The position numbers were made by a program, and so were the translations under genes. From Candidatus Micrarchaeota archaeon (GTDB lineage: Archaea > Micrarchaeota > Micrarchaeia > Anstonellales > Anstonellaceae), in contig JAOAKI010000004.1 in NCBI GenBank assembly GCA_026413765.1, positions 97,513-161,512 on the forward strand: DNA of 64,000 nucleotides, in the 5' to 3' direction. Shown here piece by piece: positions 15,455-64,000 of this stretch. Each line of letters starts with the position of its first letter. Position 1 is the first letter of the stretch. The notes below the pieces were generated by a model that saw only the letters and a program-made list of their open reading frames with translations, did no database searches and had not been told where the DNA came from.

Positions 15455-15487
15455 AACTTTCTTTCTCTTATTTCTTATTAATAGTTG

Positions 15488-16594
15488 CTATGCAAGAAAT
15501 TTTTTCTTGCTTATCTTTTCTCTTAAGTATTCGCCCACAAAGCTTAGTCTTGGCCCTTGCAAAGCATCCTGCTCAAGCTTTTTCTTTGTTTTCAGTACGG
15601 TCTTTAATTCATCAACCCAATCTTTGTAATTTTTTATCCACTCGTATGAAAGCATTTCTTCAGCTCTTTTTAAATCGACTTCTTTTGCCTTGATAGTCAG
15701 CTGCTCAAGGAAGTCATAATCTTCTATGTCCTTCATTGTCACGCCAACAAATTTTGCCTCTGGTGTTGCTATGTCACTCCCAAGATAAGCAAGGTTCATG
15801 CTTCCAGTTTTTATCGCCCAATATATATACCAGCCCCACGCATCGCAATCAGTGAAGCAATAAATGGGCAATCTTTTGTTTGCAAGTTTTCTTATCAGTC
15901 TCCTGCAGCCTCTGCTAGCCTGCCCCTTGGGGGTTATCAGAATGCAATTTTCTTTTTTCCAAAATTTGTCTTCATTTAGCCTCTGCCACATCGCATCCTT
16001 TTCCACCACCAGCACGTAATCTGCATCAATTTCCAAAAATTCCATTCCGTTGTCTACATCAGAGGGGATCATCCAGCCGCTTCTTCCTTGTTTCGTGCAA
16101 TCAATAATATCCTCTTCCCCGCCAAATTTGTCCTTAATTACCAAAGGACCTGCGACAACTCCTTTCCGGTCGGTATTCAAGTTCAAATCCTCTCTTTTCA
16201 CGTTTAATGCCACTTCCAAGTCTTCAACCAGAGGGTTACTTTCGCTCTGCTCTGAAAAAAGCTCTTCATCCAAGTCTTCTCCAAGCGAAAATTTCAGTTG
16301 GTAATACAGCCCTCTTATTGATGTATGTGCATTTTCGGTGAGAAATTTCTTGCATTTTGCGGCAATCGCAACTGTCTGCATGAATTTTCTTGCTTGCCCA
16401 ACATTGATGAATTTTCGTTCCTCCTTTTTGTCCCCAAGCCGCAGATAACCAACGCTTTCATCGTATAATATGTTGCCTTTGCTTCTAAGTGTTGTTGTAA
16501 AGGTCGGCGTGCTTTGCGCATTTATCTCAGATATCATCTTTCTGCCGAGGTCTTCCAGTTTTTTTATGACTTCTGCGCTTTTTTCATTTTTCAT
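15488..16594 (-). CDS. top6A: DNA topoisomerase VI subunit A (Spo11 homolog)
   Basis: Winged-helix region GLYYQLKF with the catalytic Tyr region, plus a Toprim domain (LVVEKDAMWQRL, CFTDCDAWG). The track ORF has a K/R-rich TTG-initiated extension that overlaps the top6B acidic tail. The ATG at 16594 sits 11 nt after the top6B stop. Confidence 0.9.
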   Translation of the reverse strand: MKNEKSAEVIKKLEDLGRKMISEINAQSTPTFTTTLRSKGNILYDESVGYLRLGDKKEERKFINVGQARKFMQTVAIAAKCKKFLTENAHTSIRGLYYQLKFSLGEDLDEELFSEQSESNPLVEDLEVALNVKREDLNLNTDRKGVVAGPLVIKDKFGGEEDIIDCTKQGRSGWMIPSDVDNGMEFLEIDADYVLVVEKDAMWQRLNEDKFWKKENCILITPKGQASRGCRRLIRKLANKRLPIYCFTDCDAWGWYIYWAIKTGSMNLAYLGSDIATPEAKFVGVTMKDIEDYDFLEQLTIKAKEVDLKRAEEMLSYEWIKNYKDWVDELKTVLKTKKKLEQDALQGPRLSFVGEYLREKISKKKFLA

Positions 16595-16604
16595 TTTCCC
16601 ACCG

Positions 16605-21800: not shown

Positions 21801-22254
21801 TTGGCCCTGCAAAAAATATCGCAAGATACTCGCTTCCATCTGGGTTATTTCTGATCTCAACTTTGCTTATCCCCTCGGTAGGCGCCACCAAAACTCCTTC
21901 TGTAAGGATTCCAACGCCTGTCCTTATTGCTTGTTCAATCAGTCTGACTTTGTTGTTTTTGATTTCTGGTGGCAAATCAATTTCTCTATTGACGATCTTC
22001 TTTACTATATAATAGGCAATTCGTTCGCGTGATTCTCCGCTGCTTTCAAACTCTCTTATTAGGTTTGCTATGTTTGGCGGACCGACAATCCCTTCCACTC
22101 TTGCGGCAACATCGGCTGCCATTTTTATCTCAACATCCAGCGAGGGGTCAAGTTTTTTTAAGCGAGCCTTTTCCGCTATCCCATATGCTTCTTTCAGCTG
22201 AGCGTGCAGCTGCTGAAAATATTTTTCAGTCTCGTCGCAAGTATTTGGCCCCAT
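18838..22254 (-). CDS. DNA polymerase II (family D) large catalytic subunit DP2
   Basis: About 1138 aa, colinear with archaeal PolD DP2 and carrying multiple zinc-binding Cys clusters (CKACGG, CNVCHRY, CPEC, CIDCK, CNNCGG). Length is consistent with no intein. The track start at 22263 is a GTG. The ATG is at 22254. Confidence 0.92.
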   Translation of the reverse strand: MGPNTCDETEKYFQQLHAQLKEAYGIAEKARLKKLDPSLDVEIKMAADVAARVEGIVGPPNIANLIREFESSGESRERIAYYIVKKIVNREIDLPPEIKNNKVRLIEQAIRTGVGILTEGVLVAPTEGISKVEIRNNPDGSEYLAIFFAGPIRSAGGTVAALAVVLGDVARRELKIGDFRPTDTQIERYVEEIGIYGTRSAHLQYRPPDDDIRHIVKNCPVCIDGDPTEEEEVAVYRDIDGVSTNRIRSGIALVICEGIAQKAAKVSKYTKKINLDWSWLEPIIKVASKESGFLPKPDYRFLEESVAGRVIFSYPSKKGGWRLRYGRTRATGIMSKAIHPASMYILDSFLAVGTQMKIERPGKSCVVTPCDTIEGPVVKLIDGSVVRVETVQQAKELDGKIQKILFLGDILISVGDFLKSNHPLMPSAWCEEWFEQEAKKQGVQNIKHNLTAGEAVALCRKKGIPLHPRYTYFWHNITHEQLKELAEWLKTGTPHYGLFRLDSFELESSPTKAVLEELCVPHIVEQGKIKIPGEDAYALLKTMGIMVEKNITGEKFEALFDEKKPILELLSEISGMKIMAKAPTYIGSRMGRPEKARERKMKKSVNVLFPVGTAIDKNANITKIYNKLKSRAEKEGRGIEVEIARLRCKACGGQTIYTECVCGGYAVQQTVCNVCHRYQKADECPECKVKTTKWDKRSINIVSLFEKALENCKVSIDEIGDIKGVEGLFSSSKIPERLEKGVLRAKHRIYVFRDGTSRFDATDVPLTHFKPKEIGTSIEKLKELGYSHDKNGKPLEEDEQIIPLKVQDIILSKNGAKYLFRVAKFIDELLEKVYGIAPYYRLEKEEDLVGHLVVGLSPHTSAAVLGRVIGFTDANVGFAHPYFHAAKRRNADGDEDSVILLLDALINFSLAFLPESRGGTMDAPLVLTTRIDPREIDDEVHTMEICKSYSLEFYLQTTKLASPSDANVEIVKKVLGKPEQYLSLEYTHETSCISIGPQITSYLQFKDMAEKIDAQFALQEKISAVEAADAAERLLLHHFLPDLYGNLRSFSQQNFRCIDCKIKYRRVPLSGKCNNCGGKLLLTVAKGGITKYLQHALDTINRYNLPLYLRQRLDLLKKDINSVFTEEASPQKGLAEFM

Positions 22255-22262
22255 CCAAACCA

Positions 22263-23723
22263 CTATGATTCACGAAAGCTTATATGGTGCACTCTCCCAC
22301 TTTTTGTTTCTAAAATAGGCACAACGCATGGTGTTGGCACATGCCCAAGCTTCACTTGGTATTCTGTCCGATCTTGGAATGTGCCACTATTGATGAGCAA
22401 TGCTCCACGGTAGAGCATAAGGCCGTTTTTGTGCACATGGCCCATGTGCACTACATCTGGCTCTTCTTCAATAACCAAGTAGTCCGTTCCTTCAGGAACA
22501 ATGAGATTGTCCCCATAAATTGGCGATAGGTGGCGCCTTTTGACAAGTTCCATCATAGCTTCTTCTGGTTTTGAATAGGTCAGGCCGCTTAAACTTGCAA
22601 TTATTGAATCAAGTGAAGTGCCATGATAGATTAAGTGCCTCAGACCTTCGATTTCAACCGTTGCTGGGTTGCTTGTTCTTATTACATCTGTTTTTAGCAA
22701 GTCGTACGGAATTATTGGCTGTGGTTCGGCCCTTCTTACTGCATCATGATTGCCAGGAGCCACTATGACTTCAATATAATCAGGAATATACTCTAATGCC
22801 TTGTCCACAAGCTCGTATTGCTGATAGATATCTTTAACGGCAAGCTCCTTTTCCTGTTCAGGATAGATGCCAATCCCATCTACAACGTCGCCGCAAATGA
22901 CTATGTATTTTATCTTGCCGGCAAGCTCTTTTTTTCCTTCTGCACCATTTAACCAATTTATAAACCTGAAAAATTCCTTGTCTAAAAATTTTTTGCTGCC
23001 AAAATGCAAATCTGAAAGATATGCTATTGCCAGGTCATTCTCGGCCTTTTTTTGTTCTCTTGCAAACGGCAAATCTGGCCAGGTTATTGAATCAGAAATA
23101 AACAATTCACCAATACTTTTGCCATCAAAAGCGACGATATCGTCAAGAAGCATTCTTTGTGCAGCTTTAAATGCATCTGTGTCCTTATTTATGACAACTT
23201 TCGCATTCCCTTCTTCATCTTCAACGTCAAAAAGAATATTGCCTTTTTTTGTAATTCTCTTGTCCGTCACCATCCCGATTAATCTGACCTTTGCGTCTAT
23301 CACCTCTTTCACTTGGGATGTCGTAATCATTGGGTAAGGGCTGTTCCGCGTCTTCAAAATTTTTGAAATCCGCTGGAAGCGATTTCGAAAATAATTAACA
23401 AAATCCTCCAATTTGCCGGTGCAATTTGTCTTTCCGCTCACATCGCTTTTGCTTATCAAGCGAACGTTTGAATCATACTCCTTTGCCAGCGGCTTAAAAT
23501 CAGGCGAACGGCTGATGACTGCCTGAGTGGGTACTTTTTCTTGAATTGATATTAATTTCTCAATTGTTTCAAGGTTGATGATGGGCGAGTCTAACTTACT
23601 TATTTTTTCGATGACTTCTGGCTCGATTTTGTTGTTTTCGATGAAGTCATAAGCTTCTGGCGTAAGCCGTACGCCTTTCTTGTATAGCTCTACAATGTCG
23701 GTTTGCATCTTTCCCACATCCAT
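22263..23723 (-). CDS. DNA polymerase II (family D) small subunit DP1 (Mre11-like phosphoesterase/exonuclease)
   Basis: OB-fold N-terminal part, then calcineurin-like phosphoesterase motifs (LSDLHFGSKKF, VICGDVVDG, APGNHDA, HMGHVH). Its stop lies immediately before the DP2 start. Confidence 0.92.
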   Translation of the reverse strand: MDVGKMQTDIVELYKKGVRLTPEAYDFIENNKIEPEVIEKISKLDSPIINLETIEKLISIQEKVPTQAVISRSPDFKPLAKEYDSNVRLISKSDVSGKTNCTGKLEDFVNYFRNRFQRISKILKTRNSPYPMITTSQVKEVIDAKVRLIGMVTDKRITKKGNILFDVEDEEGNAKVVINKDTDAFKAAQRMLLDDIVAFDGKSIGELFISDSITWPDLPFAREQKKAENDLAIAYLSDLHFGSKKFLDKEFFRFINWLNGAEGKKELAGKIKYIVICGDVVDGIGIYPEQEKELAVKDIYQQYELVDKALEYIPDYIEVIVAPGNHDAVRRAEPQPIIPYDLLKTDVIRTSNPATVEIEGLRHLIYHGTSLDSIIASLSGLTYSKPEEAMMELVKRRHLSPIYGDNLIVPEGTDYLVIEEEPDVVHMGHVHKNGLMLYRGALLINSGTFQDRTEYQVKLGHVPTPCVVPILETKSGRVHHISFRES

Positions 23724-23809
23724 TGAATGCTGCTGATTGCCTCATTCGGCTTGCAGCTTTGCGCATAATGAGAAGCATGCATTGCTCCACAATGCACGCT
23801 TTCCTTCAT

Positions 23810-24064
23810 TCATTGCGGCTTGATTGATTCGAGGGCAGAAAGTATCGCCCACATTTGAGTCCTTGCATGCATAGGTATGTTTATGTCTTCACTTACTCCT
23901 TCGATGGCATAGATTGCCGCAGATATCCTCGTTGAAAGGTCGTCTTTGCTTTTGAGCCTTTCTTTTGCTTCCGCAAGAGCTCTTCTGATATTTTTCGGCA
24001 CCGTAGTGTCTTCACCCAATGTCTCAATCATTTCAATAATCTGCGCGACCTTTTTTTCCACCAT
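23810..24064 (-). CDS. UPF0147-family small protein (archaeal, about 85 aa)
   Basis: MVEKKVAQIIEMIETLGEDTTVPKNIRRALAEAKERL has the length and charge pattern of UPF0147. The track ORF is a 5' extension that reads through the tRNA gene on the opposite strand. It was trimmed to the ATG at 24064. Confidence 0.6.
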   Translation of the reverse strand: MVEKKVAQIIEMIETLGEDTTVPKNIRRALAEAKERLKSKDDLSTRISAAIYAIEGVSEDINIPMHARTQMWAILSALESIKPQ

Positions 24065-24164
24065 AATAACACCCTCTATTTCTAGTGATTGTAAGCCCTC
24101 TACCAGTCCTTTTTGGAATTTAAAGGAACTAAATTTATAATCATTCAACCAAAATATTTTATTA

Positions 24165-24271
24165 GGGCCCGTGGCGCAGGCTGGATAGCGCGGCAGACTT
24201 CTAGCGGTTCCCCTCTTTGTGGGTATGCGGCAGGAATCTGAAGGTCGTGAGTTCAAATCTCACCGGGCCCG
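24165..24271 (+). tRNA. tRNA-Arg(TCT) with an intron of about 32 nt 3' of the anticodon loop
   Basis: Hand fold gives a 7-bp acceptor stem (GGGCCCG/CGGGCCC), D-arm GCGC-10 nt-GCGC, anticodon stem GCAGA with loop CTTCTA (anticodon TCT), a T-arm GTGAG-TTCAAAT-CTCAC and discriminator G. About 32 extra nt (24204-24235) precede the 3' anticodon-stem strand TCTGA. The intron and anticodon stem 3' strand are not cleanly resolved by hand. Confidence 0.6.
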
Positions 24272-24273
24272 CT

Positions 24274-24936
24274 ATGCAGTCAGCTACACGAATAAAAAAA
24301 GGCAAGATAGAGAAAGTAATCACAATTCTGAAAAAAACTTACCCTAACGCCCGCTGCACGCTCAATTATAAAACACCAATCGAACTTCTTGTTGCCACGA
24401 TTTTGTCTGCGCAATGCACTGATGAAAGAGTAAACAAATTGACACCCCCTCTTTTTTCAAAATATAGGAAGGCCGAAGATTTTGCAGAAGCTCCTCTGTC
24501 CGATCTCAAGCGCTATATCAAGTCTGCTGGATTTTATAACACCAAAGCAAGATATATCAAAGAAGCTTGCAGAATAATTCACCAAAAATATGGTGGCAAA
24601 TTGCCAAATCAGATGAAGCAGCTTCTTGAGCTTCCAGGGGTCGGCAGAAAAACCGCAAATATACTGCTGGGAAATATATATGGGATTCATGAGGGCATCC
24701 CGATCGACACGCATGCCTATAGAATTAGCAGGAGGCTAGGCTGGACAGTCAAAAATAGCCCTGAGGCTATAGAATTCGACCTAATGAAAATCATTCCAAA
24801 AAAATATTGGCTAAAGATTTCGGATTTGTTTGTCCATCATGGGAGGGCAATTTGCAAAGCTAAAAAGCCTGCCTGTAGCCGCTGCCCTATTTCTGCCTAT
24901 TGTCCAAAAATAGGAGTCAAAAGAGTTGCAAAATAG
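24274..24936 (+). CDS. nth: Endonuclease III (HhH-GPD DNA glycosylase/AP lyase with a 4Fe-4S cluster)
   Basis: HhH motif LPGVGRKTANIL, catalytic Lys/Asp region and the C-terminal CxxxxxxCxxCxxxxxC cluster (CKAKKPACSRCPISAYC). The ATG at 24274 lies 3 nt after the tRNA. The track ORF start at 24217 overlaps the tRNA. Confidence 0.9.
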   Translation: MQSATRIKKGKIEKVITILKKTYPNARCTLNYKTPIELLVATILSAQCTDERVNKLTPPLFSKYRKAEDFAEAPLSDLKRYIKSAGFYNTKARYIKEACRIIHQKYGGKLPNQMKQLLELPGVGRKTANILLGNIYGIHEGIPIDTHAYRISRRLGWTVKNSPEAIEFDLMKIIPKKYWLKISDLFVHHGRAICKAKKPACSRCPISAYCPKIGVKRVAK

Positions 24937-25428
24937 CTACTTGAGAACAACCAGATTCGTCATTCCTCGCCTCTTTCTCTCTATGAGGCCGCGCTGCTCT
25001 AGCCTGTCTAATATTCTTGAAACTTTGACTTTTGTGAAGCCGGTTTTTTTCACTATTTCGGATTGAAATATTGATCCGTCTGAATTTTGTACCAATCCTA
25101 ATACAATTTTTTCATTTTGATCTTTTATTTTCTCTAAATCAAAGTTTGTAATTATTTTTCTTTCTGTCAAGGGCAAAGCTTCTTCTTTCTTTGAAAAAAT
25201 CAAGTAGATTGCGCCAAAAACTATGACAATATTGAGGAATAAAAGGAGCAGGATTACCATATTTTGCGTTTCAACAACTTTTTTGTGAGGACAGTCACCG
25301 TTTTCGTGCATGCAACTTTCCGCTGAAAGCTCATTGAGGGCGTTGTTGTAAAAGTAAATTGTTATTCCAGAAATGACAAGTACTATCAATAAAGTGATTA
25401 CCAAACTCGTTGAATTCTGAAACTTCAT
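24937..25428 (-). CDS. Membrane-tethered winged-helix transcriptional regulator. It is a putative metal sensor of the adjacent divergent cop locus.
   Basis: Two TM helices flank a Cys/His loop (ESCMHENGDCPH). A C-terminal wHTH follows (SEIVKKTGFTKVKVSRILDRLEQRGLIERK). It is divergently oriented from copZ with a 73-nt shared promoter region. Confidence 0.55.
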   Translation of the reverse strand: MKFQNSTSLVITLLIVLVISGITIYFYNNALNELSAESCMHENGDCPHKKVVETQNMVILLLLFLNIVIVFGAIYLIFSKKEEALPLTERKIITNFDLEKIKDQNEKIVLGLVQNSDGSIFQSEIVKKTGFTKVKVSRILDRLEQRGLIERKRRGMTNLVVLK

Positions 25429-25507
25429 GAAACTCCTCCTCTATGAAACTAGTTTCGCCAATACATATTTAAGTTGTTATCTATCCGCTTTCTGAGTTGG
25501 GGTGGCT

Positions 25508-25708
25508 ATGAAAAGAACTTTGTATATTGAAGGAATGCACTGCGCCTCGTGTGAAAAGCTTATTGCGATGAATCTGCTAAAAATAGCCGGTGTCAAAGCG
25601 GTAAAGGCAGACGCGCAAAAAGGGATTGTGGAGATAGAGGGAGAAGGTTACGATTTAGCAGTGGTCCGAAAAGCAGTCCAAGCGGCAGGATACAAAGTTA
25701 AGAGGTAA
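25508..25708 (+). CDS. copZ: Copper chaperone CopZ (HMA domain)
   Basis: GMHCASC metal-binding motif in a ferredoxin-like fold of about 67 aa. The track start at 25502 is a GTG. The ATG is at 25508. Confidence 0.88.
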   Translation: MKRTLYIEGMHCASCEKLIAMNLLKIAGVKAVKADAQKGIVEIEGEGYDLAVVRKAVQAAGYKVKR

Positions 25709-25712
25709 TAAA

Positions 25713-26438
25713 ATGGGCGAGGAGGAAGCGGACATCTTTTCTGAATTAAAGTCTTTCTTGCATTCTTCAATTTTTGGAGTAGGCACTCACAAACTTGAGC
25801 ATAAGATCTTGCGATATGCAACATACACATTTTTATCCCAGCTATTTGCCCTCGGGCTGGTCTATTATTTTTACTCCTCTTCTATTCAAAATTCAGAAAT
25901 TTTGTTCCCATATCTCTTGTATACAATAATTTCATCGGTTGCGGTTTCAGCTTCTTCATTTTACCATTATGCCCATCGCCTGAGCTTTACCTGCATGGAA
26001 GGGATGATGGCTGGCATGACAAATGGGATGATTGCTGGCTTTCTTTTTGGCGCCATCACAGGCGCCACAAACGGAATGTTTGTAGGGAGTTTGGTTGGGA
26101 TGTTTGTTGGCATGGCAATTGGTTTATGGTGCGGAAAGTGCTGTGGCATAATGGGTACACTTGAAGGTCTGATGGCTGGATTGATGGCAGGCCCAATGGG
26201 TGCAATGTTATCTGTCATGATGCTCTTTGACAATTTGGCTATTTTCATTCCTATTTTGGTTTTTGCTTGCATCATTATTCTTGTTGCGTTTGGGTATATG
26301 GTCAGGACCACTGCGGCTGCTCGCACAGAAGGAAAAGATGTCGGATTTTTGCCATTTTTCCTTTTCGCTCTTTTTCTGACTTTGTTTGTGCACCTTATTG
26401 TCTTGTTCGGTCCTCGCTCTACATCCGTGGTTGTATGA
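25713..26438 (+). CDS. Methionine-rich polytopic membrane protein, a putative Cu(I)-binding or transport accessory protein
   Basis: 241 aa. A central segment of about 80 aa holds about 18 Met in MxxxM/GMxxGM motifs plus a CGKCCG cluster. It is flanked by TM helices and sits between copZ and copA, overlapping the copA start by 4 nt. Confidence 0.5.
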   Translation: MGEEEADIFSELKSFLHSSIFGVGTHKLEHKILRYATYTFLSQLFALGLVYYFYSSSIQNSEILFPYLLYTIISSVAVSASSFYHYAHRLSFTCMEGMMAGMTNGMIAGFLFGAITGATNGMFVGSLVGMFVGMAIGLWCGKCCGIMGTLEGLMAGLMAGPMGAMLSVMMLFDNLAIFIPILVFACIIILVAFGYMVRTTAAARTEGKDVGFLPFFLFALFLTLFVHLIVLFGPRSTSVVV

Positions 26439-40658: not shown

Positions 40659-41549
40659 ATGAATTTTTTTGAAAGGCTTTTCATTGCGATACGCCTTCCA
40701 TTCATGGTTGCAAGCATGTTGCCTGCCTTTGCTGCTGCTGCGTTGGCGTTCTATGATGGAGGCTTTAGCTTGCCTGTGTTTTTGGCTATCGCAATTGCCA
40801 TATTTTTTTCTCATGCAGCAACAAACCTGGCAAACGACTATTTTGATTTCAAAGAGGGCAATTACCCGCCTAAAAAAACTGGGCCAACAGGCGGAAGCTT
40901 TGCAATACAAAATAAGCTGTTCAGCCCGCAGCAAATAATCGCGATGGCAGCGCTATTTTTTGCATTTTCGATTGTGCTTTTTTATGCAGTGTCCACATTT
41001 ACCGGATATAAAGAACTATTTCTGCTTGGCTTGGCAGGCAACTTTATAGGAATTGCATATAGTATGCCGCCTTTTAAATTAAGCTACAGAAATCTGGGAG
41101 AAATTGCGACATTTTTAGGAATGGGCCCAATTTTAGTTTCTACTGTCTATCTTTCGCAAACTGGCACAATAACTCTTGGCGCGCTCATGCTTTCGATATT
41201 TTTTGGCCTTCTTGTTTCCAATATTCTTCTTGCTGCTCAAATTCCTGATATTGAAATTGACAAAAAAACAAAAAAGAACACAATTGCATCTGTTTGGGGC
41301 GAGAAAGTTTTGGCGCAAAGCTTTCTTTTCTCTGCTTTTCTTGGAGCATTTGCTTTGCTTATTTCAGTACTTTACAATATTTTACCAGCTGGCAGCCTCT
41401 TAGGTGTGCTCAGCACTATTGCATCAGTAGAAGCAGTTAAAAAGATGACTTCTAAAAAGCATATCGGAGCGATACAAGATTCGCTTCTTGCTTTGCAGAT
41501 TGGCAGCATTCTTGTTGTAATAGGAATACTAACGGGGGTGATATGGTGA
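40659..41549 (+). CDS. UbiA-family prenyltransferase, MenA-like (1,4-dihydroxy-2-naphthoate polyprenyltransferase-like)
   Basis: NDYFDFKEG matches the UbiA/MenA Asp-rich motif. It has 8-9 TM helices. The ATG at 40659 is preferred over the GTG-initiated track start at 40623. Confidence 0.78.
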   Translation: MNFFERLFIAIRLPFMVASMLPAFAAAALAFYDGGFSLPVFLAIAIAIFFSHAATNLANDYFDFKEGNYPPKKTGPTGGSFAIQNKLFSPQQIIAMAALFFAFSIVLFYAVSTFTGYKELFLLGLAGNFIGIAYSMPPFKLSYRNLGEIATFLGMGPILVSTVYLSQTGTITLGALMLSIFFGLLVSNILLAAQIPDIEIDKKTKKNTIASVWGEKVLAQSFLFSAFLGAFALLISVLYNILPAGSLLGVLSTIASVEAVKKMTSKKHIGAIQDSLLALQIGSILVVIGILTGVIW

Positions 41550-41962
41550 AAAAAGTAGAATATACAAAAGAAGATTGGGGGTTGCTGGCATTAAGATTGA
41601 TTTTTGTAGCATTCATGCTGCATGGAATCCAAAAATTTACTTCTCTTGATGGAACTGCACAATTTTTTGAGAAAATCGGAATACCTGCTCCGTATATCAT
41701 GGCTCCGATTGTTGCTTTTGTTGAAACGTTTGGCAGCCTTGCGATAATTTTGGGGATTGGCACATCAATTGCAGCGCCTTTGCTTGCATTCGTAATGTTT
41801 GTTGCAATCTTGACTGCTCATTTAGGAAGCATGTTGGCCAAAGGTTTTCCTTTTGGCCTTCTGGGAGGAGAATTGCCATTGGCAAACATGCTTGCATCAA
41901 TAGCAATCATGTTGCTTGGACCAGGAAAAATAAGCTTGGAAGAGCAATTAAAGAAAAAGTAA
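41543..41962 (+). CDS. DoxX-family membrane protein
   Basis: 139 aa with four TM helices in the DoxX pattern. GGGGGTGA SD. It overlaps the prenyltransferase stop. Confidence 0.8.
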   Translation: MVKKVEYTKEDWGLLALRLIFVAFMLHGIQKFTSLDGTAQFFEKIGIPAPYIMAPIVAFVETFGSLAIILGIGTSIAAPLLAFVMFVAILTAHLGSMLAKGFPFGLLGGELPLANMLASIAIMLLGPGKISLEEQLKKK

Positions 41963-42616
41963 ACTCTCAATTTTAGTCTTTTTTCTTTTTTTTAGCATTT
42001 TTGGCCTATTTATGAAATAAAGAGTATAAAACTAAAATAAATTTAGAATTACTAACATATATTTTGAAAAATTTGGATCTGCCATTTTTTGATGAAAACG
42101 AAGAAAGAAAAATCCAAAACTTTGCCAAATTCTTAAAATAACTTGAATTTTCAATGAACAGCAGTTAATCTAAAAGCAAAAAAATACCATATAAGAAAAC
42201 TGCAAAAATAATTTTAAAACTGATAAAGTAAACCATATATGAAAGAGTTTATGCAACTTTTTTTCTCTGGTTTCTCGTCACAATATTTATTGACATTTTT
42301 TGATGCAACAGGCTTGCTTGTGAGCAAAAACTTGGCAAAAAAATGGAAATAGCATAATTTTTTGCACTTTTGGTATACCAAAATGAGATTATTAACTAGA
42401 TTGGTATACTAATAAGATGTTAAAATATTTTAACATAATTTAAGATGATTTGTTTTGATTGAAAAGAAATAGCACGTGGTTAACTTGGATTCTACAATTT
42501 CTTACAGTCAATCAAGAACATTAAAGCAAAAAAAGCGAATAATTTTTAGGAAACAAATATTCTTAGTATCTTTTAGTTTTGCTAATATATTTTTAGAAAA
42601 TTTAGGATATATTAAG
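41963..42616. other. 650-bp AT-rich gene-free spacer between convergent genes. It contains the perfect palindrome TGGTATACCA (42371-42380) and a second TGGTATAC copy (42402-42409).
   Basis: No ORF of 60 aa or more on either strand. Composition is far below the window average. Repeats were read directly. Confidence 0.5.
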
Positions 42617-43228
42617 CTAGCGCCCATCAATGTCTTTATTGGCACTATATGTAAGCAAAGGACCATATTTTCTAGAACTGATTAAATAATAATCAAATAC
42701 AAGGCTTATTGCATGAACAGCATGAAAAACTACATGTGCTTCTTGTGTATCTTTAAAATCTGCAATTGAGGCCGCCTCAATTAAAATTTTATTTAGTCTC
42801 TGCCTGAATTCAAGCAGAAAATTTTCAACTTCATGATTCTCATAGCTTGAAAATGAAGGAAAAGCAGGCAGGCGGTTTTTTGAGCTTTCTATAAATGAAT
42901 TGAATCTGTTTCCATAAAATGGAAAGCCAGGCAAGCTTGCTATTTTTATCATATAATATGCAAAATCTGTGACTTCTTTTTGGGCAGGGATGGGAATGCC
43001 TGAATTCTGAATGGATTTGATGATAGCAAAAACTACTTTTTTGTATATCTGGGTAAACTGCTTGCGATTGTTGCATAGGTGCTGCTTTTCTTCCAACTTC
43101 AAATCTATATTCAAATTCTTATCAATGAGCGGCTGCTTGTTTCTTACTACTGCCAAATCAACTTTGTATATGCGTTGCAGTTTTATGGCTTGAATGTTTG
43201 CAAACCTAAAAATTACATGGCTATCCAT
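42617..43228 (-). CDS. Hypothetical protein with a low-GC coding sequence
   Basis: 203 aa, ATG start, K/N/I/F/Y-rich. No recognisable motif. It lies 3 nt downstream of the preceding gene, so it is probably co-transcribed. Confidence 0.45.
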   Translation of the reverse strand: MDSHVIFRFANIQAIKLQRIYKVDLAVVRNKQPLIDKNLNIDLKLEEKQHLCNNRKQFTQIYKKVVFAIIKSIQNSGIPIPAQKEVTDFAYYMIKIASLPGFPFYGNRFNSFIESSKNRLPAFPSFSSYENHEVENFLLEFRQRLNKILIEAASIADFKDTQEAHVVFHAVHAISLVFDYYLISSRKYGPLLTYSANKDIDGR

Positions 43229-43231
43229 AAT

Positions 43232-44359
43232 TTAACCCTCCTTAATGAAATGTTTCAAATCTGCAAGCAGCAGTTTTCTTAGCAAAACTGGGTCAGAAGT
43301 GAACAATGGCTTGATCGTCTCTGCTGCTTTTTTGTAGCCGTGCATATAAAGCCAATTTGAAAAGTCATCTCGCGAAGCATGCGCAATTAAGGATGCATCG
43401 TCAATTTTTTCTATATATTCACACAATTCAGCTAGGTTTTTTGCCCTTCCAATTTCTATCCCAGAAGGGGTTCTGAAAATGAAATCCCCAAAACCAAAAA
43501 AATCGCGCAAAATGTCCCCCACTTTCTTGAAAAGGAGAGGATCGGACTTGCTGATGACGAATCCGATGTGTTTTTCGCTGGCTTTCTGCAACTTTTCTTG
43601 CGCACCAGACTGGAAAATTATCGGAACTGTTTTGTTGTATGCCCTAAGCATTTTGGCAAGCTCGAAACTAAGTTCGATATTGCGGAGCCCCAAAATTGCT
43701 CCTGCAAACCTGTTCTTGCCTTCAATAATGAATTTTTCTGCTTCAGAGTATTCTCTGGCAAGAAGAATATGTGCCCTTTTTTCGTTGAGCTTGAAAAGTT
43801 CAACCAGATAACCGGAGTAATAGTTTGGTTTGCTCTCAAAAATCAGAATAAGCCTTTCATTGTCCAACTTATAGTTTAGTTTACTTTCGTGCAATTCAAC
43901 CATCGCAGGAAAAATCTCTGCCTGGCCGGTATATTGGAAAACATAATCAATTTTTGGAATAACGACATTAGGGTCAAACCCCCTATCCTTGACGAACTCT
44001 GCAAACTTTTCTAGGCTGCCACAGCAATAGAGATTGCTTGTGATGAGGGCGAAGGCTGCATTGGAATACTCTTTGACATCAATTGCGATTTGTTCGCCTT
44101 TGTATGGGCGGTCATCCCCAATATCGCTAATGACTATTGTGCGCCCGTCTGCGCCCCTGATTTTTTCGATTAACTCAGGCAAGACTTCTTCCCTTGTGCG
44201 CTTCTGAGTTGTCCCGCTTTTTACTGTCAAGATGCTTTCAACTTGGATTTTTCTCCACAGGATTGATTCCAATTCGGCGCGTATTTTCTGGGTCTCCCTA
44301 AGCGGCCCAATAACTACTGCCTTCTGGACCTGTATAACATTTGAGACATTATTTTGCAT
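43232..44359 (-). CDS. Hypothetical 375-aa protein
   Basis: ATG start and soluble. No motif I can name. It is divergent from the PPDK_N-domain gene. Confidence 0.5.
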   Translation of the reverse strand: MQNNVSNVIQVQKAVVIGPLRETQKIRAELESILWRKIQVESILTVKSGTTQKRTREEVLPELIEKIRGADGRTIVISDIGDDRPYKGEQIAIDVKEYSNAAFALITSNLYCCGSLEKFAEFVKDRGFDPNVVIPKIDYVFQYTGQAEIFPAMVELHESKLNYKLDNERLILIFESKPNYYSGYLVELFKLNEKRAHILLAREYSEAEKFIIEGKNRFAGAILGLRNIELSFELAKMLRAYNKTVPIIFQSGAQEKLQKASEKHIGFVISKSDPLLFKKVGDILRDFFGFGDFIFRTPSGIEIGRAKNLAELCEYIEKIDDASLIAHASRDDFSNWLYMHGYKKAAETIKPLFTSDPVLLRKLLLADLKHFIKEG

Positions 44360-44376
44360 AACCTCACTTTGAGATT

Positions 44377-44390
44377 GTTATAAAATATAT
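44377..44390 (+). promoter_or_regulatory. TATA-box-like TTATAAAATATATA upstream of the PPDK_N-domain gene
   Basis: Read directly. It is positioned about 40 nt before the ATG at 44430. Confidence 0.35.
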
Positions 44391-44429
44391 ACGAAAGTGA
44401 TTAAATACTTTTTGAACAATATTCAGCCA

Positions 44430-46223
44430 ATGATTTTGGTCCGTTTCAAGGATTATCCGCACAAGATTGTCAATGAAATAAAAAGCAGTGTAAGAGTGCC
44501 TGCGTTTAACTATTATTTTGGCGGCCGCGAAGGCGGAAAAGTCGCGGGCCTAAAGGATTTTGCAGCAGCATTGGAAGGAAACCAGCATCGTCTTGAGAAA
44601 GAATTTGACCGGAATGTCTACTTTGCATGCCCAAAAACATCTGTCCTTCAGACAAGCTTATTTGAATCATACATGGACAAAAACGACTTGTGGAAAGAAG
44701 TCGAAAAGCGATTGCCGGAAAAAGAGCTTGAAGCAAAATTCCTGCGCGGCAGTTTCACAGACAAAGAACGGGAGACATTAAAATTCATACTAAACGACCT
44801 GAATAGCGGGCACATCCGCCCGATTGTGGTTCGGTCTTCTAGCCTAAATGAGGATGCGGAGCGTGCCTCGTTTGCAGGAATCTACCGGTCAGTGTTGCTT
44901 CCAAATTGCCATCCAGACGATGAAGTAAGATTAAGGCAATTTGAAACTGCAATAAAGCTTGTCTTTGCAAGTGTATTTTCGGATGCTGCCATAAAGTATA
45001 GACAGCGAAAAAACATACCTGAAGGCAGCGAACGCATGGCAATAGCCCTGCAGAATATGGTGGGGCGGCTATGGAAGCTTAAAGATGGCTCGCCGATTTA
45101 CCATCCAGAGCTTTCATTTGCGGCTTTTTCATACAATGATTACCCAATTGGCGGCGCCAGCCCGAAAGAGGGAGTGGCACGAATTGCATTTGGATTGGGA
45201 GAAGGTGTTGTCGAAAATGATGCTCAAACTGCAGTGAAAGTTCAGCTTGGAAGGCCGCTTACGATATATGAAATGTATGATGCCAAGCAAGCTGCAAAAG
45301 TTGCTCCGCGCTACTTTTATGCCCTTGAATTTAAAGCTGATGAAAAAATGCCAGCTAAAGAGGACAGCTACCTGTTGAAACTTCCTATTGAAAAGCATGA
45401 AAATGAAGACATGATTTCACGGCATCGGATGTTTTACTATGAAGATGGCTTTCATTACTATCCTCCAAGAGAGAATTCTTTTGCAATTGGGCTTTTTACT
45501 TTCACAAATGTCATCAAAGGCAAATTTGGAAATAATTTGATAAAGGTAATTGCATTCCTAAACCGGCTCTTGCAGGAATATTTCGGGGTTTATGTGGACT
45601 TTGAAGGTGCGGTTGACTTCATCAAACGGCCAGACGGCAATGTTGCAACTGTCATTTATGTGCTGCAGGCCCGCCCACAAGTAAGAGGCGATCTTGCAAG
45701 AGTTAAGAAATTGCCGACGATAGATGAAAGCAAGGTATTGATGAAGTTGCAAGGCGTGATTGGAAAAGGGAGGCAGGAATTTGGACACTTAATTTTGGTA
45801 AAACGAGAAGAGTTCAACCATAAAACATCTTACAAGCTCGGACAAATAATAAGGGAGATGAATAGCTCTCTTTCTTTACTTGAAGAAGAAGGCAAATATC
45901 TGCTTGTTGTGCCGGGCAGGATTGGCTCGCGCGACCCATCGCTTGGTATACAATGCGATTTTTCACACATAAACCATGCGGTTGGAATCATAGAACTGAT
46001 AGAAGGAGATTGGGTCCCATCACAAGGAACACACATGTTTGAGGCAATCGTTGGGGCGGGCATGACGCTGGGACATTACCGAACAGAAAAATTTGACGCC
46101 GGAAAATTGGAGAAATTTGGAGAATTAGTGCATGAGAAAGAAGGCGTGCTGCACTATGTGTTTGGCAAGCCCATGAATCTCACAGTTGACGAAGATGGAA
46201 ATGGGATAATATATCAATCTTAA
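44430..46223 (+). CDS. PEP-utilising-enzyme N-terminal (PPDK_N / pyruvate-phosphate-dikinase ATP-grasp) domain protein. It lacks the phospho-His swivel and PEP-binding domains.
   Basis: RPIVVRSSSLNEDAERASFAGIYRSVLL matches the PPDK_N nucleotide-binding signature (VAVRSSATAEDLPxASFAGQ). The domain end VIYVLQARP matches LQSRPiT. The C-terminal 150 aa are unassigned. The track start at 44397 is a GTG. The ATG is at 44430. Confidence 0.72.
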   Translation: MILVRFKDYPHKIVNEIKSSVRVPAFNYYFGGREGGKVAGLKDFAAALEGNQHRLEKEFDRNVYFACPKTSVLQTSLFESYMDKNDLWKEVEKRLPEKELEAKFLRGSFTDKERETLKFILNDLNSGHIRPIVVRSSSLNEDAERASFAGIYRSVLLPNCHPDDEVRLRQFETAIKLVFASVFSDAAIKYRQRKNIPEGSERMAIALQNMVGRLWKLKDGSPIYHPELSFAAFSYNDYPIGGASPKEGVARIAFGLGEGVVENDAQTAVKVQLGRPLTIYEMYDAKQAAKVAPRYFYALEFKADEKMPAKEDSYLLKLPIEKHENEDMISRHRMFYYEDGFHYYPPRENSFAIGLFTFTNVIKGKFGNNLIKVIAFLNRLLQEYFGVYVDFEGAVDFIKRPDGNVATVIYVLQARPQVRGDLARVKKLPTIDESKVLMKLQGVIGKGRQEFGHLILVKREEFNHKTSYKLGQIIREMNSSLSLLEEEGKYLLVVPGRIGSRDPSLGIQCDFSHINHAVGIIELIEGDWVPSQGTHMFEAIVGAGMTLGHYRTEKFDAGKLEKFGELVHEKEGVLHYVFGKPMNLTVDEDGNGIIYQS

Positions 46224-49333: not shown

Positions 49334-50506
49334 CTAAGAATGCGTTTCCATGAATCTTTCTATTTTTGCTAGTGCTTCGTGAAGCTCCTCTGGCTGCGCC
49401 AAGTAGACGAGCCTGAAAAACTTGCCTGGCAACACCGGAGAAAATGCACTCCCAGGAACAACAAGGACGCCGGTTTGCTCCAAAAGCGCATAGACGAATT
49501 CTCGGTCGTCTCTAAATTTTGAGGATTCAATTTGAGGAAATGAGTAAAATGCCGCATTGGGCTTTGCGCAACTAATATTTTTAATGCTGTTCAACCCCTT
49601 GAAGACAATGTCGCGCCTTTTCTTGAGTTCTTTCTTCAGTTCGGATAGATGGGAAAGCGGCATTGTGAATGCGGCAAGCGCGCCGCGCTGCATTTCCCAA
49701 TTGACTGAAAGCCGCTGGTTGCAAAGCTTCACAAGCGCATCGCGGAGTGGCTCCATGCCCTCACCATGAAGGGCAAGGTATCCAACTCTTGCGCCAGGAT
49801 AGACGAAGTTTTTTGAAAGGCCATTGCCGGAAATAAGCGGGTGGTCTTTTGTGAGAGTCCTAAGGTTTATTGCTTGGTCTTCTTCCAAAGTTAATTTGTC
49901 GTAAATTTCATCAGCAATAATTGGGATGTTTGCCTCGATTGCTATCTCCACTATTTCTTGCAAGACTTTTTTCGGGTATACTGCGCCAGTTGGGTTATTT
50001 GGATTGATAACGACTATCGCTTTTGTTTTTTTATTTATTTTTTTTCGGATGTCTTCTGTGTCAGGAATGAAGTTTTGGTCTGTTTTGTAGAAATTGTCAA
50101 CGCCATCAAATACCCGCAGTTTCGTATTATAGAGGGGATAGCTTGGGCTTGGCAAAAGCACATTTTCGCCTGGATTCACAAGGGCCTGAAAAAGAAAATC
50201 AATTCCTTCTGAAAGGCCATTATGGATAGTAACAAAACTTGGGTCAACGCCTTCCAGCTTGGCAATTGCTTCCCTTAATTGCGGGTCGCCTTCAGATGGG
50301 CAGTAGGCAGTATATTTAGGGTCTTTCAAGGCATCCATTACCGCTTGGGTTATATGCTGAGGCGGTTTGAAGCCAAACTGATTCGGATCGCCAATGTTGA
50401 ACCAGTGCACTTTTTTTCCTGTGGATGCGACTTTCCTGGCCCGCGCAACTATATCGCGAATCTCGTATGATATGGAGGCTACCCTTTTTGCTAGCTTGAC
50501 TGCCAT
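49334..50506 (-). CDS. Class I/II pyridoxal-phosphate-dependent aminotransferase (aspartate/aromatic aminotransferase family)
   Basis: NPNNPTGAVY, SKNF with the PLP-Lys region, and an R near the C-terminus. 390 aa. Confidence 0.88.
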   Translation of the reverse strand: MAVKLAKRVASISYEIRDIVARARKVASTGKKVHWFNIGDPNQFGFKPPQHITQAVMDALKDPKYTAYCPSEGDPQLREAIAKLEGVDPSFVTIHNGLSEGIDFLFQALVNPGENVLLPSPSYPLYNTKLRVFDGVDNFYKTDQNFIPDTEDIRKKINKKTKAIVVINPNNPTGAVYPKKVLQEIVEIAIEANIPIIADEIYDKLTLEEDQAINLRTLTKDHPLISGNGLSKNFVYPGARVGYLALHGEGMEPLRDALVKLCNQRLSVNWEMQRGALAAFTMPLSHLSELKKELKKRRDIVFKGLNSIKNISCAKPNAAFYSFPQIESSKFRDDREFVYALLEQTGVLVVPGSAFSPVLPGKFFRLVYLAQPEELHEALAKIERFMETHS

Positions 50507-62255: not shown

Positions 62256-64000
62256 AATCATAATCAAAGGCGCAAGGCAGCACAATCTGAAAAACATAGA
62301 TGTGGAGATACCAAGAAATGCGCTTACAGTAATTACTGGAATATCGGGGAGCGGCAAAAGCACGCTTGCGTTTGATACGATTTATGCAGAGGGACAACGG
62401 CGGTATGTTGAGTCGCTCTCGTCTTATGCAAGGCAGTTTTTGGGGTTGATGAATAAACCTGATGTTGACTCAATTGAGGGGCTTTCGCCTGCGATAGCAA
62501 TCGAGCAGAAGACCACAAGCAAAAATCCTCGCTCGACAGTCGGGACTACAACCGAAATATACGATTATTTGCGGCTCCTTTATGCAAGGATTGGCATACC
62601 TCATTGCCCAAAATGCGGCAAAAAAATATCCTCGCAAACGAATGAGCAAATCGCAAATTTCATCATGACTCAAAACGAAAACAAAGAATGCAAGATACTT
62701 TCCCCGATTGTAAGAGGCAAGAAAGGCACTTACGAAAAGCTTTTCGACGAGCTTCGCAAGAAAGGCTATTCGAAGATAAGGCTGAACGGAAACGTGATGG
62801 ATCTAGACAAGCCAATCCCGAGGTTAGACAAAAACAAGAAGCACACAATAGAGGTTTTTGTGGACAAGTTCACTGTTTGTGGCCAAAATAGGCAGAGGCT
62901 GCTTGAAGCAATAAAAACTGCGGTCAGGGAAAGCCCAGAAGGCTTGGTTGTCGCGCTGATAGACAAAAAAGAAATACTTTTCTCGCAGACCAACTCGTGC
63001 CCAGATTGCGGATTTTCGATGGGCGAGTTGCAGCCGAGGATGTTTTCCTTTAATTCACCTTATGGGGCATGCGAAGAATGCCATGGGTTGGGAGTCAAAA
63101 TAGAATTTGATGTTGACCTGATAATACCGGACAAAACAAAAACGTTCAATGAAGGCGCAATTCTCCCCTGGAAAAATACAGTGATGAGCAGCTATTACCT
63201 TCAGCTTTTGGAAGGATTGGGCAAGCTATATGGCTTCAGCTTGGATACGCAATTTAATGCTTTGACCGAAGAAGCAAAAAGAGCAGTGCTTTATGGCTCA
63301 GATAAAAGAATAGATTACAGAGTTGAAAGCAAAACAAGCGACATGAGATATGAAGGCAGCACCTATTTTGAAGGAGTGATAAATAATCTTGAGCGTCTGT
63401 ATAGGCAGACAAAATCCGAATACAGAAGGCAGGAGCTGGAAAAATTCATGCGCGAATTGCCGTGCCCGAAATGCAAGGGAAAAAGGCTAAAAGACGAAAT
63501 CCTTGCAGTGAAAATAAATGGAAAAAACATCATAGAAGTCACCGAGCTATCAATTGATTCGGCGTACGGGTTTTTCACTTCGCTTAAGCTCTCAAAGGAA
63601 GAGCAGGAGATTGCAAAGCCTGTTTTGCGTGAGATATTGTCTCGTCTGGACTTTCTTATCAATGTTGGGGTAGGGTATTTGACGCTTGACCGCGTGACAG
63701 GCACGCTATCGGGCGGCGAAGCGCAAAGGATAAGGCTTGCGACACAGATTGGCGCGAATTTGACAGGGGTGTTGTACGTCCTTGACGAGCCATCGATAGG
63801 GCTTCACCAGAAAGATAACCACAAATTAATCTCAACCTTGAAAGCGCTGAAAGAGCAAGGAAACACACTAATAGTTGTTGAGCATGACGAGGACACAATA
63901 AGAAGCGCAGACTACGTAGTCGATTTGGGGCCCGGAGCAGGAGCGCATGGTGGGCGTGTTGTCGCAGTGGGAACTCCGGAAGAGATAGAAAAAAGCAAAG
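62245..64000 (+). CDS. uvrA: Excinuclease ABC subunit A, 3'-truncated by the window edge
   Basis: Manual translation from the ATG at 62245 gives MQDKIIIKGARQHNLKNIDVEIPRNALTVITGISGSGKSTLAFDTIYAEGQRRYVESLSSYARQF with UvrA Zn fingers (CPKCG, CPDCG, CEECHG) and ABC signatures. It overlaps uvrB by 11 nt. It is absent from the ORF track because its stop is outside the window. Confidence 0.93.
   Translation, partial: MQDKIIIKGARQHNLKNIDVEIPRNALTVITGISGSGKSTLAFDTIYAEGQRRYVESLSSYARQFLGLMNKPDVDSIEGLSPAIAIEQKTTSKNPRSTVGTTTEIYDYLRLLYARIGIPHCPKCGKKISSQTNEQIANFIMTQNENKECKILSPIVRGKKGTYEKLFDELRKKGYSKIRLNGNVMDLDKPIPRLDKNKKHTIEVFVDKFTVCGQNRQRLLEAIKTAVRESPEGLVVALIDKKEILFSQTNSCPDCGFSMGELQPRMFSFNSPYGACEECHGLGVKIEFDVDLIIPDKTKTFNEGAILPWKNTVMSSYYLQLLEGLGKLYGFSLDTQFNALTEEAKRAVLYGSDKRIDYRVESKTSDMRYEGSTYFEGVINNLERLYRQTKSEYRRQELEKFMRELPCPKCKGKRLKDEILAVKINGKNIIEVTELSIDSAYGFFTSLKLSKEEQEIAKPVLREILSRLDFLINVGVGYLTLDRVTGTLSGGEAQRIRLATQIGANLTGVLYVLDEPSIGLHQKDNHKLISTLKALKEQGNTLIVVEHDEDTIRSADYVVDLGPGAGAHGGRVVAVGTPEEIEKSK

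Follow-up and report, generated by a model that had tools for sequence, protein, structure and literature searches.

A candidate structured RNA gene and a split ATP-grasp enzyme at an AT-rich locus of Micrarchaeota

The Micrarchaeota are archaea that depend on hosts and have small genomes, shorn of most dispensable DNA, and their non-coding RNA (ncRNA) content is almost unexplored. What does a long AT-rich spacer between two convergent genes hold in such a genome, and are the genes beside it foreign? We address both questions at 41.9–46.3 kb of a 64,000-nucleotide (nt) stretch of a Candidatus Micrarchaeota archaeon genome (GenBank contig JAOAKI010000004.1), hereafter the window. A first-pass annotation, made from the sequence alone, had described this region as a gene desert with a palindrome, flanked by uncharacterised genes and a truncated ATP-grasp protein of the phosphoenolpyruvate (PEP)-utilising type. 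Our analysis favours a different joint reading, to which we give a probability of about 0.72: the spacer holds a stand-alone gene for a structured ncRNA of ~240 nt, and the genes next to it encode an enzyme split into regulatory and catalytic parts, rather than an island with a truncated PEP synthase.

A conserved element in the centre of the spacer

The spacer extends from the stop codon of a DoxX gene (41543–41962, +) to that of an orphan gene for a 203-amino-acid (aa) protein (42617–43228, −). Its GC content of 0.242 compares with a mean of 0.426 (standard deviation 0.030) for the 54 open reading frames (ORFs) of the window and ~43% for the window itself, ranging from 0.225 to 0.285 in 200-nt windows inside the spacer, and the 1-kb bin 42001–43000 is the window minimum at 0.284. 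The first-pass annotation was right to call both the spacer and the 203-aa gene (GC 0.348) compositionally atypical, and its estimate of 650 bp is close to the measured 654 bp. Its view that convergent genes normally abut in this genome is only partly correct: the other convergent gaps measure 164–305 bp in a crude gene set, and 654 bp is unusually long. The palindrome that it reported is real, as TTGGTATACCAA forms a perfect 12-nt palindrome at 42370–42381 and a second TTGGTATAC lies at 42401–42409, 31 nt away from start to start. Four copies of TTGGTATAC occur in the window against 0.14 expected, a count reached in 0 of 100 shuffles.

Comparison with relatives reveals that this spacer is not a gene desert and that a conserved element occupies its centre. 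In locus L001, a relative with 69–77% protein identity, the spacer between the same two genes is 673 bp long, close to the length in the window. When both spacers were globally aligned in one orientation they looked unrelated and the alignment was uninformative; blastn detected a 66-nt block, 80% identical, on the opposite strand (E 1e-11). Alignment to the reverse complement of the L001 spacer extends this block to a conserved centre of ~200 nt. A blastx search of the spacer against the ORFs of other loci returned weak matches in several frames and on both strands, falling between genes in every other Micrarchaeota locus, which points to conservation at the level of DNA. With nhmmer we found one copy of the element each in L001, L002, L004, L084, L086 and L087 (alignment A9). 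A metagenome search with a pattern drawn from the window and L001 variant gave 0 matches; a pattern combining three invariant blocks brought up 32 stretches, 21 of them true homologs and 11 chance matches. Three matches in viral contigs are likewise chance, and a hidden Markov model (HMM) finds no element there.

That HMM was built from alignment A10, which holds 22 distinct sequences, and was run over 1.17 Mb of Micrarchaeota, bacterial and viral loci. It identifies exactly one copy in each Micrarchaeota locus searched, with the window copy matched at 42217–42423 on the + strand (E 2.3e-32), and no element in 75 bacterial loci that carry a fused form of the neighbouring enzyme. Forty-two columns of the 22-sequence alignment are invariant, the core measures 194–196 nt in 22 of 22 sequences, and insertions and deletions are 1 nt long. 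The copies in the window and L001 are richest in AT and score lowest, yet keep all invariant positions. A search of Rfam 15, a check proposed in the first-pass annotation, found no match for the element at gathering thresholds, nor at E ≤ 10 when the 286-nt element was searched alone, with best scores of 14–17 bits against thresholds of 44–94; the sole gathering-level match in the window is a transfer RNA (tRNA) at 24165. A literature search on Micrarchaeota ncRNA returned nothing relevant. The suggestion that the spacer could hold an ncRNA was thus borne out by comparison between genomes, which uncovered a conserved, apparently structured and uncatalogued element. The spacer and the parts of the element are as follows.

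41963–42616, no strand: AT-rich spacer of 654 bp between the convergent DoxX and 203-aa genes, GC 0.242
42183–42425, +: candidate structured ncRNA gene of ~240 nt, with approximate, inferred ends (nhmmer match 42217–42423; alignments A9, A10 and A12)
42188–42198, +: conserved 5′ block, ACCAUAUAAGA here and ACCAUAUCAGUA in consensus, a near-copy of the sequence just upstream of GUAAACC
42221–42235, +: 5′ strand of the closing stem P1, holding the invariant GUAAACC at 42228–42234
42305–42317, +: hairpin P4, GCAA-CAGGC-UUGC here, consensus GCCGG-AAG-CCGGC
42335–42365, +: helix H5, in which GCAAAAAA (42335–42342) pairs with UUUUUUGC (42358–42365) around a conserved AAUGG loop
42370–42381, +: palindrome TTGGTATACCAA, containing the invariant internal box GGUAUAC (42372–42378), complementary to GUAAACC
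42402–42416, +: 3′ strand of P1, the second GGTATAC (42403–42409) followed by GAUG; a T-run stands at 42428–42431

Coding potential, strand and structure of the element

The element evolves in a manner that rules out a protein. Every reading frame on either strand is interrupted in most of the 22 sequences, differences between the window and L001 are spread over the three codon positions as 6/4/3, and L001 has no ATG in frame. We therefore give almost no credence to the idea that the block codes for a small protein, the 37-aa ORF at 42239–42352 being one candidate. The same frame is open in the window and L001 over ~41–54 codons, but only ~1 of 11 codon changes between the two is synonymous, and across the 22 sequences all frames are broken and length differences are of 1 nt.

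Structure prediction points to an RNA whose two ends pair. The conserved 5′ block precedes a conserved core that is bounded by GUAAACC at one end and by the 3′ GGUAUAC box at the other. In the RNAalifold prediction, P1 arises from pairing between the invariant 5′ GUAAACC and the 3′ GGU(A/U)UAC box, the flanks of both included. Compensatory changes occur at four positions of this stem, including one pair that is AU in 14 sequences, GU in 5 and GC in 3, and in 22 independent foldings the mean pair probabilities reach 0.4–0.7 for P1 pairs and for no others. On A10, P1 and P4 together are 84.1% paired, against 29–48% when their 3′ partners are slid by 1–3 columns, and their covariation score of 0.216 (0.163 ± 0.014 in shuffles) is reached by 1 of 500 shuffles, a control that ignores the kinship of the sequences. 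Inspection of the segments between invariant blocks yielded a further helix, H5, between a segment ending in the A-run of AAAGAAUGG and a UUUUG-containing segment 20 nt downstream. H5 is marked by double changes: CUGCCC/GGGCAG in L004, CUGGGC/GCCCUAG in L102, CCCGAAA/UUUCGGG in L095 and CUUAAAA/UUUUGAG in L089. With H5 and a possible pseudoknot, H3, added, 75.3% of positions are paired against 34–50% in the slid controls, and the score is reached by 0 of 500 shuffles. Several invariant single-stranded blocks complete the interior besides P4 and H5, the latter enclosing the invariant AAAGAAUGG block. A hairpin between 42288 and 42351, predicted for the window alone, was set aside because it is not conserved in L001.

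The same stem assigns a strand. P1 includes ~30 G-U cells in A10; read from the opposite strand these would be A-C, which marks the + strand of the window as the one transcribed. T-runs follow the 3′ end in most sequences, on one strand only, and the + strand of the window folds with a z-score of −3.99. Upstream, the conserved block ACCAUAUCAGUA stands 45 nt before GUAAACC and is preceded by an A-rich, TATA-like stretch, which places the likely start near 42183–42190. Together, the comparisons indicate that the centre of the spacer is a gene for a structured RNA of a family that is not in Rfam 15.

The predicted RNA accounts for the palindrome. TGGTATACCA contains the invariant internal GGUAUAC, the second copy TGGTATAC is the 3′ strand of P1, and both GGU(A/U)UAC boxes are complementary to the GUAAACC at 42228–42234. 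In most relatives the 3′ box reads GGUUUAC and is not palindromic. A palindrome seen by eye in AT-rich DNA can thus be the DNA image of RNA helices. CAUAUCAGUA is present twice on the 5′ side of the RNA and GGU(A/U)UACUG.AUGA twice on the 3′ side, and these duplicated, complementary copies make several end pairings possible. P1 alone is 85.9% paired and a nested alternative of two helices, with the 5′ block and 3′ box outside and GUAAACC and the internal box inside, is 74.1% paired; both lie far above slid controls. Covariation in the nested model does not exceed that of shuffles (104 of 500), so the closing stem P1 appears the better supported arrangement, and we keep the nested model as an alternative conformer only. 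A conformational switch between the two end pairings is conceivable. A sequence resembling TGNCATTTTTTGATG occurs three times in the spacer, at 42080–42100, 42291–42311 and 42446–42466; the middle copy falls inside the RNA, in the conserved UUGA...GAUG region, and the other two outside it.

We propose that the RNA would be transcribed from its own A/T-rich promoter, starting near the ACCAUAUCAG block and ending at the oligo-T run, and that it may act in trans as a protein-bound RNA. Its duplicated, mutually complementary end boxes would permit two alternative closing helices. In being single-copy and fixed in length, with paired ends and invariant loops, and in lying beside variable, defence or proviral DNA in several loci, it resembles both orphan ncRNAs found by comparative genomics and the tRNA and tmRNA genes that mark integration hot spots. 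It differs from known small stable RNAs in matching no Rfam family and in carrying four mutually complementary end boxes, and an attachment (att)-type duplication is represented only by one weak partial copy, in L100 (below). A single-copy, fixed-length RNA with 42 invariant positions that is kept across a phylum probably does something important, and it offers a concrete target for RNA studies in the few available Micrarchaeota co-cultures.

A split enzyme and a fast-evolving orphan gene beside the spacer

Three genes lie between the spacer and 46223.

42617–43228, −: 203-aa orphan protein with motifs FPFYG and HxxFH, of a family restricted to Micrarchaeota
43232–44359, −: 375-aa protein, putative regulatory subunit, with a receiver-like domain, a second receiver-like domain without acceptor Asp and a C-terminal OrfY/DUF5752-like domain
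44430–46223, +: 597-aa protein, putative catalytic subunit, with a PPDK_N ATP-grasp domain (aa ~35–433) followed by a 170-aa C-terminal domain

The 375-aa and 597-aa genes are divergent and stand ~70 bp apart. We take the ATG at 44430 as the start of the latter. The NCBI record P0001, a 100% identical protein from a metagenome-assembled Candidatus Micrarchaeota genome, has the same start; with a GTG further upstream, at 44397, the protein would have 608 aa. The first-pass annotation had counted 598 aa and called the protein truncated. A search with it retrieved 15 Micrarchaeota orthologs of 583–610 aa and more than 100 bacterial proteins of ~990 aa, and the latter carry PF00072 (receiver), PF19027 (DUF5752) and PF01326 in the order receiver, receiver, DUF5752, PPDK_N and a final ~170 aa without Pfam annotation. 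The 375-aa protein aligns to residues 115–361 of one such fusion (P0038) with 30% identity (E 3e-28), so that the 375-aa and 597-aa proteins are two halves of one protein. Far from being truncated, the 597-aa protein has the full length of its family; a conserved 170-aa domain forms its end, and its N-terminal regulatory counterpart is encoded by the divergent 375-aa gene. Scanning a single genome for each GTDB species yielded 348 proteins related to the regulatory module, spread over Bacteroidota, Ignavibacteria, Marinimicrobia, Fibrobacteres, Planctomycetota, Desulfobacterales, Myxococcota and Heimdallarchaeota. Two genes annotated as hypothetical are thereby placed in a family of >300 bacterial species, that of a putatively receiver-gated PPDK_N ATP-grasp enzyme, and its regulatory and catalytic modules can be read off from the way the genes are naturally split.

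The catalytic half combines a familiar domain with one that has no recognisable relative. As had been proposed, Pfam recognises PPDK_N alone in the 597-aa protein (PF01326, E 5e-33, 115 bits against a cut-off of 27, profile positions 5–325 of 328), with motif RPIVVRSSSLNEDAERASFAG, and detects neither the swivel phospho-His domain PF00391 nor the PEP/pyruvate domain PF02896. Across 98 sequences the ATP-grasp domain keeps P131, R135, S136, S137, E141, D142, E392 and Q413 invariant, and the C-terminal domain keeps R497, G499, G506, E522, S531, G533 and H535 (GPGRxGS...PSQGTH, the last part being motif PSQGTH). AlphaFold models the whole protein with a pLDDT of 90.6 and the C-terminal domain with 94.2. 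By eye this domain might be taken for a swivel phospho-His domain (YLLVVPGR...AVGIIE...SQGTHMFEAIVGAGM), an assignment that Pfam, a profile search of the Protein Data Bank (PDB) and Foldseek all fail to support. Pfam finds nothing at E ≤ 10 in 13 C-terminal domains, the profile search of PDB sequences gives 0 matches, and the Foldseek comparison that the first-pass annotation had suggested returns no dikinase, with a best TM-score ≤ 0.40 and root-mean-square deviations of 8–15 Å. The 170-aa C-terminal domain is without recognisable relative in sequence or fold, and its invariant His, in PSQGTH, sits in a fold unlike that of the swivel domain.

These features set the enzyme apart from better-known proteins. 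Like PEP synthase, pyruvate phosphate dikinase and rifampin phosphotransferase, the 597-aa protein has PF01326 and the RSSSxxED and GGK motifs; unlike them it has the relative-less 170-aa domain in place of the PF00391 swivel and PF02896 domains, and its best scores with NCBIfam equivalog models are ≤ 45 bits, against cut-offs of 456–1700. The bacterial ~990-aa proteins, annotated as "PEP/pyruvate-binding domain-containing protein", are 27–32% identical to the 597-aa protein over 85–94% of its length in their catalytic part, including PSQGTH. The window differs from them in having two divergent genes, in the loss of the second-receiver Asp and in the lack of an adjacent glutamate dehydrogenase (GDH) gene. 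In bacteria, a GDH gene (ELFV_dehydrog) stands within 300 bp of the ~990-aa gene in ~30 of 75 loci (L009–L083), across many phyla and in every orientation, for example at L041 8675–10018 and in L056. Five bacterial loci also carry a class I/II aminotransferase gene like the one at 49334–50506 of the window. An apparent GDH–enzyme fusion in L048 proved to be an artefact of an out-of-frame ORF in GC-rich DNA. We treat the adjacency as a lead, nothing more, to the physiology of the family, and one that can be tested.

The first-pass annotation had also held the 375-aa protein to be without recognisable domains, which alignment of 17 Micrarchaeota homologs corrects. The first of its two receiver-like domains keeps an invariant D78 (ISDIGD) and T106, with the DD pocket replaced by GP..E and the Lys not conserved. 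The second keeps K270 and, in the clade of the window, has lost the acceptor Asp (Gly; AILGLRN, with a 7-residue deletion), a site that reads AIIDV in deeper Micrarchaeota and ISD in bacteria. PF00072 finds no match in the window protein, and bacterial homologs score 34.4 and 31 bits against a cut-off of 30.2. The C-terminal ~90 aa (GFGDFIFR...HASRDDFSNWL) match DUF5752 at E 1e-3, under the curated cut-off, and a profile of the 375-aa protein matches the second repeat of OrfY from Thermoproteus tenax (4cso) in the PDB at E 7e-4. The protein thus has one OrfY/DUF5752 repeat unit fused to receiver-like domains; the function of OrfY itself is not established, and literature searches on DUF5752 and OrfY found nothing relevant. 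A mechanism consistent with this architecture is that the ATP-grasp domain would spend ATP on an acceptor that the C-terminal domain holds, either phosphorylating it or activating it with a pyrophosphoryl group, with the invariant His535 as the best candidate carrier or catalytic residue, and that the receiver/OrfY module of the 375-aa protein would gate this activity. In the clade of the window the module would be a pseudo-receiver, independent of Asp phosphorylation.

The 203-aa protein, for which no recognisable domain had been reported, indeed has no Pfam match. Searches of Pfam, NCBIfam, PADLOC, PDB profiles and 5.8 billion sequences recover only its own small family, with 6 representatives of 193–207 aa among 1.84 billion proteins. 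Its gene lies 3 bp downstream of the 375-aa gene, with which it is probably co-transcribed, and family members follow the 375-aa gene in L001, L002 (two tandem copies), L086 and L087. Identity in this family is 31–39% where the 375-aa protein keeps 63–77%. The earlier impression of a visibly low GC content is confirmed: at 0.348 (z −2.6), and 0.324 at third codon positions (GC3; z −2.4), the gene is the lowest of the 54 ORFs. On these comparisons it is a fast-evolving, lineage-specific accessory gene of the cluster.

Genomic setting and competing explanations

The RNA gene occupies a characteristic place in its relatives. In 9 loci (L001, L002, L004, L084–L087, L099 and L115) it follows the 375-aa gene on the same strand at a distance of 0.8–4.3 kb, with genes of the 203 family, arrestin/Spo0M-like genes or Bact_hydrolase genes between. 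Arrestin_N/Spo0M-like genes of 142–157 aa recur in this interval (L004 4127–4555, L086 6638–7066, L089 7327–7800 and L098 13319–13750), as does a Bact_hydrolase (PF20603) gene in L002, L084 and L089. Beyond the RNA, several loci hold restriction-modification, SIR2, GmrSD, Shedu-type or terminase-like genes, so that the RNA gene stands where a variable region begins. Terminase-like genes (a weak GpA_ATPase match) and helix-turn-helix genes immediately follow the 3′ end of the RNA gene at L089 4261–6118 and L092 77–688, which suggests a provirus integrated beside the RNA gene in these two loci. In L100, 51 nt from the RNA 3′ end are present a second time (2633–2683, −; nhmmer E 1.4e-3), 300 nt downstream of the full copy; this partial copy could be an att-like duplication. 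Two annotated genes of 140 and 181 aa at L085 2974–3813 overlap the RNA homolog at 3076–3273 and are probably spurious calls.

Normally, then, the RNA gene would close a cluster headed by the 375-aa gene on the same strand and border an island-prone variable region. The cassette is inverted in the window only, where the RNA points toward the 203-aa gene. A 22-nt inverted repeat brackets it and is a possible trace of the inversion.

42028–42049, no strand: left arm of the repeat, 82% complementary to the right arm
42559–42580, no strand: right arm of the same repeat, 82% complementary to the left arm

Could the conserved block be something other than the gene for a new RNA? A DNA element, whether an origin, a partition site or an operator/promoter cluster bound by a dimeric protein at the GGTATACC palindrome, would fit the long AT-rich spacer, the perfect palindrome and the repeats (TGNCATTTTTTGATG three times, GGTATAC twice), and a symmetric site could tolerate the difference in orientation between two genomes. 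We nevertheless consider it very unlikely, as the compensatory changes and strand-specific G-U pairs favour RNA, the core is fixed at 194–196 nt with many invariant non-palindromic blocks, the 3′ box is the non-palindromic GGUUUAC in most relatives and oligo-T follows one strand only. There is also no gene here for an operator to regulate because the flanking genes converge on the spacer. The replication or partition site that the first-pass annotation had offered as an alternative finds no support among the neighbours (DoxX, 203-aa, 375-aa, PPDK_N and Maf genes, with no Orc1/Cdc6-type gene called), and the cumulative GC skew reaches its minimum elsewhere, at ~24 kb next to the PolD genes; origin recognition box (ORB) sequences of the phylum are unknown and no formal ORB search was made. 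If the block is an RNA, it might be a highly divergent housekeeping RNA that Rfam misses, such as a minimal RNase P RNA or signal recognition particle (SRP) RNA. A single-copy, strongly conserved, lineage-wide RNA with paired ends is what one would expect of such a molecule, and mobile or defence DNA adjoins several loci as at tRNA-type integration targets. This we regard as unlikely, since no Rfam family, the archaeal RNase P and SRP models included, matches the 286-nt element at E ≤ 10, and on informal inspection we recognised no RNase P or SRP signature sequence in the RNA.

More weight, though still a minority share, goes to an RNA tied to the adjacent cluster, either as a processed 3′-end product or regulator of the 375-aa operon or as a substrate or partner of the ATP-grasp enzyme. 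The shared strand and the spacing of 0.8–4.3 kb in 9 independent loci speak for it, as do the arrestin/Spo0M-like, Bact_hydrolase or 203-family genes that lie between; against it, the RNA must be transcribed alone in the window because it is inverted and convergent there, it is absent from 75 of 75 bacterial loci with the fused enzyme, and in L092 no 375-aa gene stands within 4.9 kb of the RNA. Cooperation between RNA and enzyme is possible but doubtful. Bolder and less probable again is the proposal that the RNA is the first of a new class of DPANN structured RNAs, switching between closing helices and working with the receiver/OrfY-gated enzyme, for example as its substrate or regulator; if true, this would link a widespread, uncharacterised PPDK_N family to RNA biology. 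A separate question is whether the whole of 41.9–46.3 kb is a recently acquired island with a truncated PEP-utilising enzyme, as the first-pass annotation had supposed. Nothing else in the window is as low in GC as the spacer and the 203-aa gene, the family of the latter is tiny and fast evolving, and defence genes or a possible provirus lie beyond the RNA gene in relatives. Set against this, the GC of the 375-aa and PPDK_N genes is native (z −0.2 and +0.2) and their GC3 average, all Micrarchaeota loci examined contain them as a divergent pair, usually close to Maf, and L001 keeps the gene order of the window from DHH to aminotransferase, DoxX included. Within Micrarchaeota, conservation of the pair, the 203 family and the RNA reaches down to ~42% protein identity, and the window contains no integrase, no flanking tRNA and no att-type direct repeats. 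The three genes, whose co-occurrence the first-pass annotation had proposed to check, occur together in relatives. The conserved synteny and divergent pairing indicate vertical inheritance of the 375-aa and 597-aa genes, and a recent island, with an enzyme that is in any case full length for its family, seems unlikely.

Several observations weigh against the joint reading of a stand-alone structured RNA and a split enzyme. The window and L001 copies are the most divergent, scoring 111 and 97 bits against 155–197 for the others, and the minimum-free-energy structure of the window sequence lacks P1. Thermodynamic predictions agree across sequences on P1 only, which leaves the interior fold partly resolved. 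Covariation is modest: much of P1 is invariant and hence uninformative, the score of P1 alone (18 sequences) is reached by 16 of 500 shuffles, and the shuffling disregards how closely the sequences are related. On the side of the enzyme, Pfam, PDB profiles and Foldseek offer no relative of known function for the C-terminal domain, and our proposals on the acceptor, on His535 and on gating by the 375-aa protein are inferences. Finally, as L092 illustrates, linkage of the RNA to the 375-aa gene is not universal.

Other parts of the window yielded minor observations. The tRNA at 24165–24271 (+), an intron-containing gene of a kind typical of archaea, is recognised by Rfam (RF00005, 49.8 bits) and missed by ARAGORN. 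The genes for both PolD subunits (DP2 18838–22263 and DP1 22263–23723) lie just left of the cumulative GC-skew minimum at ~24–25 kb, where gene orientation also switches, and 18838–25700 is a candidate replication-origin region. An 853-aa ORF at 9977–12538 (−) is a GC-rich outlier (0.509, z +2.8; 0.53 in the bins at 10–12 kb). Three stretches of 838–1150 nt each, at 15455–16604, 62256–63362 and 25429–26266, have no ORF of at least 100 aa in the crude gene set and may hold small genes or further RNAs.

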